Positions 50,487-57,590 of a stretch of 64,000 bases of DNA are shown here, one piece after another. A program made the translations under genes and the position numbers. The first letter of the stretch is position 1. The number at the start of each line of letters is the position of its first letter. The notes under the pieces are model-generated. The model was not told the origin of the DNA, made no database searches, and worked only from the letters and a program-made list of their open reading frames with translations. This DNA is from Alphaproteobacteria bacterium (GTDB taxonomy: Bacteria; Pseudomonadota; Alphaproteobacteria; G965222575), in NCBI GenBank assembly GCA_965222575.1, contig OZ244958.1, forward strand, positions 216,072 to 280,071, given 5' to 3'.

Positions 50487-51167
50487 TTACAACACCCACA
50501 AAATCGTTTTCATGGCACAAGCAAGCACAAGCATGACAAACACATTATCATCGATTTTAAACCTCTCAGCATAATACTCAGCACTTCCACCGCAAAGGAC
50601 AACAAAAACGCCCATCAGCAGCACCTGCTCTGTCCCCAAGTCCTCGCCTCGGTACCACTCCCACCAAGTCATCCCAACAACTTGTAAAAGACAAAAGGCA
50701 CCAAATCCAAAGACACAAAAAGCTAGAAAGCCCACCAGAGTCTTGGAAAAATCTCCCTCCGCCAATGGGGAACTGCGCCTATACCACCTGCCCACAAGAG
50801 CAGCAGCACTATCACCAATAATCATAACACAAAGGCTCGTAGACGCAACCCCTTTTGAAAAAAAACCAACACACAAAACAACCCCCAAAAGCACATACAC
50901 ACCCCCTGTAAAAACTCTATAGCCCGTCTGTACACACTCCTCGGCACGCAAAAGAGAACCAAAAAATCCATGATAAACCCTGTCCACTACCCCACCCCTA
51001 TGCCGTAACACCTCCACCACAACCAACCCAACTAACAAAGACCCAAAAAGCCATAAGCTAAACCCCCTAGAACACAAAGCCACCACAGGAACCATCCAAA
51101 GCGACGACAGATGAATGCCCTTGCGTAACACCTCAGACCCATAAGAAATAGGAACCCCCTCCCTCAT
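50487..51167 (-). CDS. CTP-transferase-1 family membrane protein (dolichol/polyprenol kinase-like)
   Basis: Polytopic protein with an IIGDSAAALVGRWYRR motif resembling the SEC59/DGK1/VTE5/CdsA family. The start is uncertain; the ORF is open to 51248. Confidence 0.35.
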   Translation of the reverse strand: MREGVPISYGSEVLRKGIHLSSLWMVPVVALCSRGFSLWLFGSLLVGLVVVEVLRHRGGVVDRVYHGFFGSLLRAEECVQTGYRVFTGGVYVLLGVVLCVGFFSKGVASTSLCVMIIGDSAAALVGRWYRRSSPLAEGDFSKTLVGFLAFCVFGFGAFCLLQVVGMTWWEWYRGEDLGTEQVLLMGVFVVLCGGSAEYYAERFKIDDNVFVMLVLACAMKTILWVL

Positions 51168-51219
51168 CACTACTACCCTCCTCACATACCCTTTAACTTC
51201 TGTCCAAACTCCTCCCCCA

Positions 51220-52980
51220 CCCTCTTGCCCGTGATACCCGAAGGACACGCCCTCTCCATAGATTATGCCATATGCCCTTGAACATCAAGAGAACTAGCAC
51301 CCCTCTTGCCCGTGATGCGGAAGGGTACTAGCCATCTTCATGGTTATGCCATATGCCCTTGAATATCAAGGGAAAGTTCCACCCCTTTTTCGTACAATAC
51401 TAACTGCCTCCCTCATCCCCCACCTAGCAACTCTTGCCCGTGATGCGGAAAGGTACTAGCCATCTTCATGGTTATGCCATATGCCCTTGAATATCAAGGG
51501 AAAGTTAACCCCTTTTTCGTACAATACTAACGCCTGAGAGAGGGTTATAGAGAGAAAGAAAACACCGCTTTTCATATACTTGCTAACTTTGACTCATTGA
51601 GTAGAAAATTATTGCCTTGTTTCAAAATGGTGTATAATATTCTAAATCCAGGCAAACCACCCTCCTTTGTAGAATTAATGACTCCAAATGACCGTGTGCT
51701 GAAGATTGGTTGGGAAGCGGTACTAGCCATGCTGGTATGAGACAAAAAACCTCAGGGGAGAGGTGACGGTATGAATTTGGCCAGAGATAGCCATGATGAG
51801 AGTAAACTTGATACATTACAGAACTGTTATTTGTTGGGTGATGCCATATGACTTTCTCAAAAATTGAATATCAAGGGAAAGTTCCACCCCTTTTTCGTAC
51901 AATACTGGAAAAACTGCCTCCCTCATCCCCCAACTTGCCGGAAGATGATTCATTGAATGCAGAGGTCATTTATTGAAGCGGCATTGGAATGCGTTACGAT
52001 ATGGGGTCGTTCTCTTAACATAGGACGGAAGATAAAAAACCTACATGAAGACAGGCGAGAACTAATAATTGCAAATTTTCCTGTAAGACAACTTGTAATA
52101 TGGAATCGCGGAAGCACGTTCCACCCCGTCTATATTGCCGCCAATATATGAACTTATTTACATTATTGCGGGCAGGAACTGGCGATCCCAATCAAATATC
52201 TTGCTGAATTTCGATATTGGGGAGATGTCTGGCGCATCAATCCCGAAATGAGAAATCTACACCCGGCACCATGCCCATTTGAACTGGCGATCAAGGGAAT
52301 AGATGGGCCACCCCTTTTGCCGTACAATACTGGGCTTGCCTGCCCTCATAGGAGTGCCATTCTATCTGAACGATCTTTCCCCCGAGTACAGGGAAATGTT
52401 TTATCGGAAAAGGAATATCTTAAACCAATCTTTTATGCAATCTTTGATAGCCTCTCACTTATGCCTTTCCTGTAGAAATATCATTGTGATCTGCTCGCTA
52501 AAGTACAATAAACCAGCCTCATGATTTTGTCAAGGGAATGATGGATGTCTATAATAATCTTGATTGCCGGACTCTGTACATGGGAGGTATTTTGAATACG
52601 TAATCGGGGAGACTTTAGCAAAGGGGATTCGCCATTTATATTACCAAGCTGAGGTTTTGCATGTGCCATTGGCGACTTGACTGGTTTTTATACCATGAAA
52701 CAAGCCCTGTTTCTGTCTCGTAAAACTAGGCTCGTGATAGATGGAAACAGGCAGCTTATGAAGCCATGGCATTGAAGAAGGTTTATGTCCAAGCCACCAA
52801 TTACTTGGTGACTATGGAAGAGTTAAGTGCAACCGATAATAAGAAAACATCAGCACCGCAGACAATAGACTATTTCTTGGTCGCTACTAAATCTGAATAT
52901 AGCGAGGCTTTGGAAGACATGCCAAACAAGGGAAAGTTAACCCCTTTTTCGTACAATACTAACGCCTGAGAGAGGGTTAT
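51220..52980. repeat. non-coding region containing at least 6 full or partial copies of a dispersed repeat (core ...gccatatgCCCTTGAATATCAAGGGaaagtt(c/a)acccctttttcgtacaatact...), including a 2x tandem unit of about 130 bp at 51300-51540
   Basis: Copies are at about 51268, 51330, 51460, 51845, 52290 (diverged) and 52925. The core holds a perfect 7-bp-stem hairpin. No ORF longer than 75 aa lies in the region. Confidence 0.8.
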
Positions 52981-53036
52981 AGAGAGAACCCCCCCCCCCG
53001 CACTTTTAGGGTAGTGTTACTCCTCTAGTAGCGGTA

Positions 53037-54014
53037 TCAAAGAGCCTTCTCTTGGAGGAATTTTTGTGCTTCCAAAGCAGCTTGACAGCCTAAAGCAGCA
53101 GCAGTCACAGCTTGCCTATAGACCTTATCCGTCACATCGCCAGCAGCGAAAATCCCTTCTACAGGAGTCTTAGGAGAGCCCGGCTCTACCACAAGATAGC
53201 CATCCTCATCCATAGGAAGTTTTCCCTTGAACAAATCAGTTTGAGGAATATGCCCTATCATGACAAAAGCCCCGTCTGTGGAGAGAGAGTGCGTTTTCGA
53301 AGTTTTGACCTGTTGACAAGAAACAGCGGCAAGAGTTTTGTCTCCTAAGAATTCCCTCACCACTGTATCCCAAAGAAAAGAAATATTCTGCTGTTTCCAC
53401 AATCTATCTTGGAGAATTTTTTCAGCCCGTAAGGTAGCACGTCTGTGTATTAGGACAACTTCTCTACAGACCTTAGAAAGGTGCAAAGCCCCCTCCACAG
53501 CAGAATTTCCACCGCCAATAACACAGACCTTTTGACCCTTGAAAAAGAATCCATCACAAGTCGCACAAGAGCTTATGCCAGCCCCTTTGAATTTTTCTTC
53601 CGACGGCAGTCCGAGCCATCGCGTTTTCGCTCCCGTAGCAATAATGACAGTGTTGGCATGATATTCCTTGTGATTCTCTGTTTGACACCTAAAAGGGGGT
53701 TGCAGTGCTAGTGTGGGTGAGAGGTCAAGATGAGTAAGAGCATCATCTTCAAGAATAACCCCAACACGGCGCGCTTGTTTTTCCATAGCAAGCATTAACG
53801 CAGGCCCAGAAATAACCTCCTCAAAGCCGGGATAATTCTCAACCTCCTCCGTAATGGTAAGCTGTCCCCCAGGAGACAATCCCTTCAAAACAACAGGCTC
53901 CAAGCCCGCACGCGCCGCATAAATAGCAGCCGTATACCCCGCCGACCCAGACCCCACAATCAAACAGTCCGTCTCAATAAAACCCCCCCCACTACCTAAT
54001 ACTTGTTTCATCAT
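53037..54014 (-). CDS. trxB: thioredoxin-disulfide reductase
   Basis: Redox-active CATCDG motif and FAD/NADPH GxGxxG motifs. Confidence 0.9.
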   Translation of the reverse strand: MMKQVLGSGGGFIETDCLIVGSGSAGYTAAIYAARAGLEPVVLKGLSPGGQLTITEEVENYPGFEEVISGPALMLAMEKQARRVGVILEDDALTHLDLSPTLALQPPFRCQTENHKEYHANTVIIATGAKTRWLGLPSEEKFKGAGISSCATCDGFFFKGQKVCVIGGGNSAVEGALHLSKVCREVVLIHRRATLRAEKILQDRLWKQQNISFLWDTVVREFLGDKTLAAVSCQQVKTSKTHSLSTDGAFVMIGHIPQTDLFKGKLPMDEDGYLVVEPGSPKTPVEGIFAAGDVTDKVYRQAVTAAALGCQAALEAQKFLQEKAL

Positions 54015-54112
54015 ACCCTTTCACCATAAGACAATACCCCCCTATACAAAAAAGTTCTTACTACAAAATGCTAGGTCTTTCAAGCGTGTCCCTCATCAAA
54101 ATGCGCGAACCC

Positions 54113-54742
54113 TTAACTGTGCGCAACCTGTACCGAAAGACAATGCGGTTTTAAGCCAATTTTTTTCAAGACCTTTTCCCACCGACAAGAAGGGTCTTTA
54201 TCAAACAAAATATCAGGGTCAGCCGGACAATGTAACCACCCATTTTGTTGTAGCTCAGCCTCTAATTGCCCCCCAGCCCAGCCCGCATAGCCTAGCGCAA
54301 TGAAAATTTTCGCCTTTTTTTGATTGAGAACTCTCGATAAAATCCCCGAAACCCAAGTGTCAGTCTCAAAATCCGCCTCCGGTGGATCCCCGCAATCATC
54401 TTGTTCATCGCTCGCACTACACTTAATCTTTCTCTTAATCAAATTGCTCTGTAGCAAAAACCCCTTTCTGGTATCTACCGGTCCGCCTAAATATACACAG
54501 GTCTTACAAGCCTTTTTATCAGGCTCAATACCCATCTGTAAGAGAATATCCCCTAAGTTCACCCCCTCTAAAGGCTTGTTAATGATAAAGCCTACAGCTC
54601 CTTCCGTAAGAGAATGAGAGTAAATAAAAATGACAGACTGCCGAAAGCGAATATCACGCATGAAAGGGGTCGCCACCAAAAAATGTCCTTCTAAAAATCC
54701 TCTAGGCATCAATTCATTCTGTGTGCATTTGTCTTGTACCAT
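54113..54742 (-). CDS. YqgE/AlgH family protein (UPF0301)
   Basis: GHFLVATPFMRD...VIFIYSHS...GAVGFIINKP pattern. Confidence 0.7.
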   Translation of the reverse strand: MVQDKCTQNELMPRGFLEGHFLVATPFMRDIRFRQSVIFIYSHSLTEGAVGFIINKPLEGVNLGDILLQMGIEPDKKACKTCVYLGGPVDTRKGFLLQSNLIKRKIKCSASDEQDDCGDPPEADFETDTWVSGILSRVLNQKKAKIFIALGYAGWAGGQLEAELQQNGWLHCPADPDILFDKDPSCRWEKVLKKIGLKPHCLSVQVAHS

Positions 54743-54812
54743 ACAAAAAATATCCTTCTAAAAATCCTCTAGGCATCAATTCATTCTGTGTGCATTTGTC
54801 TTGTACCATACA
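54685..54812. repeat. 67-bp direct tandem duplication spanning the yqgE start codon and RBS
   Basis: tccttctaaaaatcctctaggcatcaattcattctgtgtgcatttgtcttgtaccataca occurs twice in tandem. The upstream ATG copy is out of frame and gives a 31-codon ORF. Confidence 0.85.
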
Positions 54813-54930
54813 AGAAAAAGATTGATGGTTTATTATGTCATACTATTACGGATTTTGCTAATAAAATTGGTTTTATAGCACAAGGATGTGGTACCCTAGA
54901 GAGAAGTAGTAAGGGGTTCTTGAGTGTAAA

Positions 54931-57078: not shown

Positions 57079-57100
57079 TGTCTATAGGCTCCTTTGTTAC

Positions 57101-57436
57101 TGCCTATAGACGGGTTGCCTATACGGGTTGCCTATAGACGGGTTGCCTATAGACGGGTTGCCTATAGACGGGTTGCCTATAGACGGGTTGCCTATAGACG
57201 GGTTGCCTATAGACGGGTTGCCTATAGACGGGTTGCCTATAGACGGGTTGCCTATAGACGGGTTGCCTATAGACGGGTTGCCTATAGACGGGTTGCCTAT
57301 AGACGGGTTGCCTATAGACGGGTTGCCTATAGACGGGTTGCCTATAGACGGGTTGCCTATAGACGGGTTGCCTATAGACGGGTTGCCTATAGACGGGTTG
57401 CCTATAGACGGGTTGCCTATAGACGGGTTGCCTATA
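57101..57436. repeat. 15-bp tandem repeat (cgggttgcctataga), 20 perfect copies plus partial end copies, in the 5' leader of paralog 2
   Basis: Perfect periodicity from 57124 to 57423. The array sits between the predicted -10 element and the RBS of the 57078 gene. Paralog 1 has a single degenerate copy at the same place. Confidence 0.95.
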
Positions 57437-57470
57437 TAATAGGACAATTCCAAGCCCCTTGTCAAGAAAA
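57437..57470 (-). promoter_or_regulatory. sigma70-like promoter of paralog 2 (TTGACA-17/18-TATTAT), duplicate of the paralog 1 promoter
   Basis: Minus-strand reading: cTTGACAaggggcttggaattgtccTATTATataggcaacccg... This is nearly identical to the 56260-56292 element. Confidence 0.45.
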
Positions 57471-57590
57471 AACCCCCTAGGGGGGAAAAAAACCCTAGGG
57501 GGAAAACCCCTCCGCAAGAGTTTACTTGGGGGGGGAAGCCCCTAGGGGAAAACCCCCTAGGGGGCTAGCCCCCCCCCTACAGCAATTTTA
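57465..57590. other. cluster of CCCCTAGGGG palindromes and G8/C9 homopolymers
   Basis: The palindrome recurs at least four times here, and again downstream of each paralog (55456-55470, 56287-56330, there followed by T7). These may be bidirectional terminators or a regulator binding site. Confidence 0.4.

Follow-up and report, generated by a model that had tools for sequence, protein, structure and literature searches.

What has filled the largest gap between open reading frames (ORFs) in a 64-kb stretch of alphaproteobacterial DNA with short, hairpin-bearing repeats? The gap – positions 51168-53036 (1869 bp) of the window, by which we mean the whole 64,000-nucleotide stretch that was analysed – separates trxB from a membrane-protein gene. 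A sequence-only reading had described it as a gene-free region packed with a dispersed repeat family, which might mark a decayed mobile element, a cluster of miniature inverted-repeat transposable elements (MITEs), small RNA genes or a recombination hotspot. Our data indicate that the locus is very probably a pseudogenised Type II restriction-modification (R-M) operon with local duplications of one segment of its methyltransferase gene: ordinary genome decay, of a kind already known. The description as gene-free holds in so far as no intact gene is present and the ORF listing of the window gives no ORF longer than 75 amino acids (aa) across 51249-53036, but about 1 kb of the gap is recognisable pseudogene. 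Its contents, from left to right, are as follows.

51209-51221 and 51222-51302, plus strand: tail of an earlier unit, then repeat unit A (repeat search; self-blastn extends A leftward to 51209)
51303-51430, plus strand: repeat unit B, a full 128-bp unit (repeat search, Tandem Repeats Finder)
51431-51556, plus strand: repeat unit C, in tandem with B and 94-96% identical to it
51557-51836, plus strand: spacer, holding a partial copy of the unit's 5′ half at 51712-51739 (alignment z=5.3)
51837-51938, plus strand: repeat unit D, which represents the 3′ part of the repeat and matches B at 91% identity across 75 nt
51957-52428, plus strand: pseudogene of a beta-class PF01555 N4/N6 DNA methyltransferase (homology search, tblastn, family profile)
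52290-52349 by repeat search, 52271-52349 by alignment to B, plus strand: copy E, diverged, inside the methyltransferase remnant
~52514-52926, plus strand: pseudogene of the cognate Type IIP restriction endonuclease, PspGI/Ecl18kI/Kpn2I-like (tblastn with partner proteins)
52927-52988, plus strand: copy F, 62 bp, 100% identical to the end of unit C
52989-52999, plus strand: homopolymer of 11 C (11 G when read along trxB, whose stop codon lies 37 nt upstream of it)

The two pseudogenes

Evidence for the methyltransferase came firstly from reading-frame text (…VIWNRGS… …YWGDVWRINPEMRNLHPAPCPFELA…), which prompted the identification. A protein database search then returned 45 matches, all of them to PF01555 (N6_N4_Mtase), the best of which (E 1.5e-34) is 60% identical across 71% of the query. 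The remnant spans ~72-245 of the protein's ~247 residues, perhaps beginning as early as ~64 (at 51939), and is 50-60% identical to intact homologs, most of which are 245-280 aa long. Local tblastn with eight intact homologs gave an E value of 4e-43, with frame switches, and a family hidden Markov model (HMM) built from 27 homologs scored 128 + 50 bits in two frames, at model positions 75-193 and 136-245. In a tblastn comparison with phages the remnant matched a DNA modification methylase (E 7e-5), while the intact homolog P0122 matches the PADLOC model MTase_II at 3e-40. A Pfam scan of the pseudo-proteins, with X placed at stops, found no match, not even to a methyltransferase; this was a false negative, overturned by the protein database search.

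The gene is dead. It has suffered at least three frameshifts, an in-frame stop at 52152 and small deletions; motif I, DPFAGSGTMG in the intact family, has degraded to PFCRTILG, and the invariant NQGGKR block has been deleted. Lost with these lesions are the S-adenosylmethionine-binding motif I and most or all of the N-terminal catalytic region.

The identity of the second pseudogene emerged from the neighbourhood of intact methyltransferase homologs, which we located on contigs L016, L017 and L018/L019. On each, the methyltransferase is followed directly – by overlap or after a 3-nt gap – by a gene of 190-205 aa that lacks a Pfam match. The chromosomal contexts of these three cassettes are unrelated: that of L017 sits between recA and recX, and another adjoins an IS1595 fragment. 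The three partner proteins (L016, L017 and L018, in that order) match the window by tblastn with E values of 1e-30, 1e-27 and 1e-34, at 52570-52677 and 52673-52921, the L017 protein from 52514. The remnant thus found covers residues ~27-180 of 190-205, with ~25 C-terminal codons missing. For the L016 and L018 partners homology stops at 52921, six bases short of copy F; the L017 alignment continues to 52993, through copy F. This gene, too, is dead. At least two frameshifts are present, and the most conserved catalytic block, SISCKTKARERW, reads SVS*N*ARDRW in the remnant, with two stop codons: set against the family block SISCKTKARERWKQAAYEAMALK, the remnant gives SVS*N*ARDRWKQAAYEAMALK, such that SCKTK has become S*N* and the catalytic lysine block is lost.

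What the partner is was established by several comparisons. All three partner homologs match the same region of the PADLOC REase_II model PDLC03545 weakly (E 0.002-0.013), and phmmer finds the PspGI endonuclease (PDB 3bm3) at E 0.03. A 38-member partner profile searched against the PDB found PspGI at E 3.5e-5, over profile positions 12-176 and with the catalytic region included. An AlphaFold2 model of the partner, built from the 38-member alignment, has high predicted confidence (pLDDT 88.7, predicted template-modelling score 0.86), and Foldseek places PspGI (3.7e-5), Ecl18kI (5e-4) and Kpn2I (6e-4) at the top ranks of its PDB matches. On the strength of profile and predicted fold, the partner family (L016:6741-7358, L017:5795-6367, L018:5725-6336; P0166-P0211) is identified as a PspGI/Ecl18kI-like restriction endonuclease. 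It resembles the PspGI/Ecl18kI/SsoII/Kpn2I 'CCGG-family' of Type IIP enzymes in the matched region, which includes the …(S/V)xK…RERW… catalytic part, and in the compact order of methyltransferase (M) then restriction (R) gene; it differs from PspGI in size (190-205 aa versus 272) and is only ~14% identical to it, and the copy in the window is dead. The SPPY motif of the methyltransferase, together with the kinship to PspGI, suggests that the modification enzyme was an N4-cytosine methyltransferase.

The two families keep company elsewhere. In 16 cases the longest contigs bearing the methyltransferase and the partner are of identical size, which is consistent with a tight two-gene module. The partner family is labelled 'hypothetical' in every annotation and is without a Pfam or NCBIfam model; with the SPPY-type PF01555 methyltransferase it makes a candidate for an uncharacterised Type II R-M family. 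At the locus itself a PF01555 methyltransferase and an adjacent, co-oriented endonuclease are both found, as in a Type II R-M operon, while intact frames and catalytic motifs are absent. The lesions in both genes mean, therefore, that this is a relic and not a working R-M system.

Source and history of the repeats

Repeat copies were mapped by repeat search, self-blastn and Tandem Repeats Finder, with dinucleotide shuffles as the null for pattern counts. They number six copies or fragments (A-F) of a 60-130-bp sequence, all on one strand and all within 1.8 kb. Two diagnostic patterns match twice each where shuffles expect 0.00. The earlier count of at least six copies holds, and the repeats stand far above chance. 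The tandem pair noted earlier is likewise real: Tandem Repeats Finder reports a 128-bp period repeated 1.8 times at 51303-51535 with 96% matches, corresponding to B and C. It also lists an 81-bp period repeated 1.9 times at 51220-51374, a stretch that takes in unit A, the most diverged copy, which matches B/C at 64-75% identity and has lost 47 nt internally (by self-blastn, 51209-51307 is 75% identical to 51412-51516, E 1.7e-15). Unit B combines a 5′ half and a 3′ half, the latter paralogous to the motif-I segment of the methyltransferase, with a perfect hairpin at 51356-51372. The hairpin, CCCTTGA-ATA-TCAAGGG, is present as the sequence-only reading had it, exactly twice – in B and, at 51484-51500, in C – and has been destroyed by indels in A and D. 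Unit D lies directly upstream of the methyltransferase remnant. Finally, a perfect 62-bp direct repeat, 51495-51556 at the end of C and 52927-52988 as F, has its copies 1432 bp apart and brackets 1370 bp that comprise the spacer, D and both pseudogenes.

The label that did not survive is 'dispersed'. Every copy lies on one strand within 1.8 kb, and neither pattern searches nor self-blastn found another elsewhere in the 64-kb window, or a match there to any other stretch of the gap. Scans with the core pattern gave 5 isolated single matches, in unrelated organisms, among 185,579 species-representative genomes, 9 among 241 million metagenome records and 1 among 2.9 million viral contigs, all of which we judge to be chance.

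Copy E bears on where the repeated sequence came from. Unit B, over 51353-51416, is collinear with 52271-52349 in the methyltransferase remnant, with an alignment score of 70 against a shuffle null of 24.5±4 (z ~11); F aligned to E scores 44 against 23.7±3.3, and blastn finds 52290-52349 to be 78% identical to 51870-51926 (E 1.3e-5). In copy E the methyltransferase gene keeps its original form of the repeated sequence: the translation gives …PFELAIKGIDGP… and …LGLPALIGVPF…, residues that fit the conserved …PFPLELA·RMAKLIDGP·ADPFAGSGTMGIAA·ELGVPY… of the intact family. Because copy E is native coding sequence with family-conserved residues, the repeat core is, by these alignments, a duplicated methyltransferase fragment of ~65-80 bp (…PFELAIKG…DPFAGSGTMGIAAL…).

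The ends of the copies carry further information. In B and D the tail (…TGCCTCCCTCATCCCCC…) can still be aligned with the methyltransferase gene (…TTGCCTGCCCTCATAGG…). C and F share a 25-nt tail, GCCTGAGAGAGGGTTATAGAGAGAA, that bears no likeness to the methyltransferase; F probably marks a junction between a methyltransferase-derived fragment and other DNA, with C a copy of that junction. The hairpin, too, has a counterpart in the gene, which holds an imperfect inverted repeat, CCCATTTGAACTGGCGATCAAGGG, where B and C have CCCTTGAATATCAAGGG. Small deletions have tightened the one into the other, the perfect hairpin being a by-product.

From these observations we infer a history in which a compact M-R cassette was acquired horizontally and inserted between trxB and the membrane-protein gene in the orientation opposite to theirs, with the SPPY-type PF01555 methyltransferase first and the small PspGI-like endonuclease directly after it. 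Once inactivated, the cassette DNA would have evolved neutrally, with no present-day function required of it. A piece of the methyltransferase would have been copied locally – in tandem as A-B-C, just upstream of the gene body as D, and as F where the endonuclease remnant is cut short at its 3′ end – and the copies would then have diverged, while deletions trimmed both genes. Ranked by divergence, A would be the oldest, D and B/C intermediate, and the C-F pair the most recent, or else kept identical by gene conversion. Of the options in the sequence-only reading, only the decayed mobile element survives, and in a different sense: a Type II R-M cassette is a selfish, horizontally mobile gene pair. 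What that reading had named as grounds against itself, an element confined to this locus in a region that BLASTX shows to be a single decayed pseudogene, is essentially what was found, except that there are two neighbouring pseudogenes from a single operon, together with duplicated pieces.

Several points weigh against a relic of this kind as a full account of the gap. The 5′ half of the unit (~50 nt, CTCTTGCCCGTGATGCGGAAGGGTACTAGCCATCTTCATGG…) could be matched to neither gene: aligned collinearly with the methyltransferase upstream of E it gives z -0.8, and against the endonuclease remnant a marginal z of 2.1. The ~280-bp spacer (51557-51836) and the 25-nt C/F tail are left unexplained. Within the spacer, HMM positions 32-64 fit 51724-51822, with strand and order both as expected, which is suggestive of a decayed methyltransferase N-terminus and nothing firmer: the score of 2.2 was reached by 3/300 and 1/200 shuffles and is not significant after ~30 tests. 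With so much decay elsewhere, the identity of C and F at 62/62 positions needs a recent event or gene conversion. As plus-strand RNA, unit C folds unusually well (z -3.8), by pairing with the C/F-type tail, although F in its own context does not. Lastly, uniqueness of the locus is proven for 64 kb only, and the scan of genome collections, which may omit the source genome, supports it indirectly.

Other sources for the repeats were tried and rejected. As copies of the 5′ end of the membrane-protein gene in its 253-aa version, or of the sequence upstream of it, they score no better than shuffles (ATGAGGGAGGCAGTT… against ATGAGGGAGGGGGTT…: 25 and 23, nulls 23.0 and 23.5), and a supposed 'Z' unit at 51095-51221 gives z 1.6. 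Nor is there support for each unit as an internally deleted whole methyltransferase with SPPY region and motif I (Smith-Waterman z<=1.6 for all units; HMM not significant). An apparent match of VATKSEY to VATSPPY upstream of F proved wrong: the stretch is endonuclease remnant (…APQTIDYFLVATKSEYSEA…).

Other explanations of the repeats

The rival that survives best concerns whole cassettes. It proposes amplification or repeated invasion – a cassette with long flanking direct repeats forming an (M-R)n tandem, or re-inserting into an older relic – with large deletions then reducing most copies to the same small methyltransferase fragment. This bears on the origin of the repeats only; the identification as R-M genes is common to both readings. 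In its favour, F is a methyltransferase fragment downstream of the endonuclease, the M-after-R order expected of (M-R)(M-R), and the perfect 62-bp repeat encloses 1370 bp, close to the length of an intact cassette (741-792 + 573-618 nt). R-M complexes are often flanked by direct repeats (PMC2853133), and three published marks of such insertions are found here: R and M inside, an insert of <20 kb and a repeat of >30 bp (PMC2853133). The likeness to R-M 'insertion with long target duplication' (Nobusato et al. 2000; Furuta et al. 2010, PMC2853133) extends to a 100% identical 62-bp bracket around both genes, a short insert and a lack of mobility genes. The difference is that the bracketing repeat is partly methyltransferase-derived, and hence no simple chromosomal target, and that more than two copies exist. 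Moreover, one and the same ~100-bp segment would have had to escape each of the independent deletions; upstream of the methyltransferase, spacer included, nothing derived from the endonuclease is detectable; intact cassettes on L016-L018 lack long flanking direct repeats; and the internal structure shared by B and C is simpler as tandem duplication of an already decayed fragment. On balance we consider whole-cassette amplification or re-invasion unlikely.

A more ambitious version would see in the methyltransferase-derived array and its 62-bp bracket a natural fossil of the R-M 'virus-like life cycle': entry with a long direct duplication, self-amplification via the repeats, and decay in a genome-reduced intracellular bacterium. 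If true, the array would be sequence-level evidence for natural cassette amplification, and the agent a previously undescribed small PspGI-like R-M family; we regard this as decidedly doubtful. Whatever their origin, the perfect 62-bp direct repeats could plausibly recombine and so delete the relic.

That the units are small RNA genes, or a cis-regulatory leader – an attenuator built of CCCTTGA…TCAAGGG / AAGGG…CCCTT hairpins, or a promoter or 5′ untranslated region of the membrane-protein gene – has some appeal, given a hairpin that is perfect in two copies, an array that adjoins the 5′ end of the 226-aa gene, and the fold of unit C described above. But folding is inconsistent between copies: unit B gives z -0.9 and -0.6 on its two strands, neither of them better than shuffles, and within its own context F gives z +0.3. 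Rfam finds three tRNAs in the window at the gathering threshold and none of its families in the gap, where a search at E<=10 yields one chance-level match to a small nucleolar RNA model (14.8 bits against a gathering score of 60, E 7.2). No promoter-like or terminator-like sites accompany the units; the copies diverge freely (64-96% identity), with the hairpin lost in A and D; and origin as a gene fragment explains the sequence sufficiently. We find small RNA genes, as put forward in the sequence-only reading, or a leader very improbable.

The same reading's MITE cluster fares slightly worse still. Miniature non-autonomous elements of MITE, REP or RPE type, inserted repeatedly and also into the methyltransferase gene, would account for units that are short (81-128 bp), hairpin-bearing and repeated several times within one region. 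RPEs are found in alphaproteobacterial endosymbionts, sometimes inside genes, and if the N-terminal fragment in the spacer is real, D sits where ~100 extra bases break the methyltransferase frame. However, unlike such elements, which share with these repeats a length of ~100-130 bp, a hairpin and repetition, the family in the window has no terminal inverted repeats (the region has a single inverted pair, 17 nt at 52522/53222, which is unrelated). Within the window it is tandem and local in place of dispersed: the other 62 kb hold no copies, and the three public collections gave chance-level singletons. Its units abut, leaving no room for the target-site duplications for which the locus was to be checked. 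Its core is collinear with methyltransferase coding sequence that is conserved in intact homologs, which makes the gene the source of the repeats and not their target. Insertion of miniature elements is hence scarcely credible. CRISPR, retron, group II intron and IS200/IS605-end readings were considered from the sequence and dropped, there being no spacer structure, no reverse transcriptase, TnpA or TnpB gene and no Rfam match.

Genomic setting and significance

The relic lies between two minus-strand genes. To its right is trxB (53037-54014; Pfam Pyr_redox_2, 3e-49), and to its left a membrane-protein gene of ~226 aa (50487-51167), whose 5′ end the repeat array adjoins. In an exhaustive HMMER search, residues 2-5 of the ~200-aa homologs of the latter align to residue ~32-34 of the 253-aa ORF; because the homologs align from there, translation almost certainly begins with the ATG at 51167, which puts the left edge of the gap at 51168. 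The public 253-aa version (P0212) starts at a GTG at 51248, its extra 27 codons occupying 51168-51248 on the minus strand. It is probably over-extended by those 27 codons, which read the reverse complement of unit A DNA. Strand skew is very strong across the minus-strand genes at 50487-51200 and 53700-54300, with GC skew to -0.55 and AT skew to +0.52 on the plus strand; the coding strands are markedly G-/T-rich and yield G/V-rich proteins. The C11 tract at the right end of the relic is the longest homopolymer in the window. The sequence-only reading had noticed it correctly but placed it at about 52969, ~20 nt too far left; at 52989-52999 it lies beyond the end of the region then described. 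RNA folding indicates that the G-run on the minus strand is able to pair with the UUCUCUCUAUAACCCUCUCUC that follows.

The source is probably a lone-lineage alphaproteobacterium whose genome would be small, a reduced 1.2 Mb. Beyond a 100%-identical protein, the nearest relatives of its TrxB are ~60% identical and, where named, alphaproteobacterial or Rickettsiales-like. The genome appears to duplicate readily, since Tandem Repeats Finder lists many other tandem arrays in the window.

Some of these arrays merit description in their own right. A 51-bp unit repeated ~14 times at 36440-37169 (95% matches in the first 10 copies) fills the gap between ORFs at 36236-36634 (plus) and 37152-38009 (minus), with a C7-C8 run in each unit. 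On the minus strand the unit reads AAGGAGG-N7-ATGAGAAAAAAAGAAGGGGGGGCTTACTCCTAA, a Shine-Dalgarno-like site followed by a 10-codon mini-ORF (MRKKEGGAYS*), the frame of which the variable G-run would shift; we judge this array more unusual than the repeats of the R-M relic. At 57101-57436 a 15-bp unit (TGCCTATAGACGGGT) is repeated 22.5 times at 98% identity, overlapped solely by mechanical ORFs on both strands (57094-57517) and followed by a palindromic AAAAACCCCCTAGGGGG repeat at 57468-57510. Between 16046 and 19859 many in-frame tandem repeats, with periods of 27, 42, 45, 54, 57, 81, 84 and 105 bp, sit in consecutive plus-strand ORFs (15541-16884, 16918-17676, 17679-18884 and 18933-19976), which suggests a cluster of repeat-containing proteins, possibly surface proteins or effectors. 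Lastly, a 67-bp unit repeated 2.1 times (97%) at 54677-54818 spans the 5′ end of an AlgH-like gene (54113-54742, minus) and the sequence upstream of it.

Decay of R-M genes in a small genome has a precedent in the 1.13-Mb genome of the endosymbiont 'Candidatus Endomicrobium trichonymphae', where R-M remnants are accompanied by rearrangements and duplication (Zheng et al. 2016, PMC4760077). The two cases share remnants of both R and M genes, a small genome (~1.1-1.2 Mb), local rearrangement or duplication and the lack of a nearby transposase or mobility gene. They differ in scale: the rearrangements in that endosymbiont (PMC4760077) are region-wide, with apparent insertions, transpositions and duplication of a region, whereas here a segment of ~100 bp has been copied within 1.8 kb. 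The locus adds a further case in which R-M remnants go with small rearrangements in a reduced genome.

The main value of the finding is as a correction: what appeared to be a cluster of hairpin repeats or small RNAs is a dead R-M operon accompanied by scraps of its own gene, and in annotation the region should carry two pseudogenes. The case illustrates that decaying DNA, when duplicated locally, can look like a repeat family. A minor positive point is the unannotated PspGI-like endonuclease of ~200 aa, tightly linked to an SPPY methyltransferase in many genomes.

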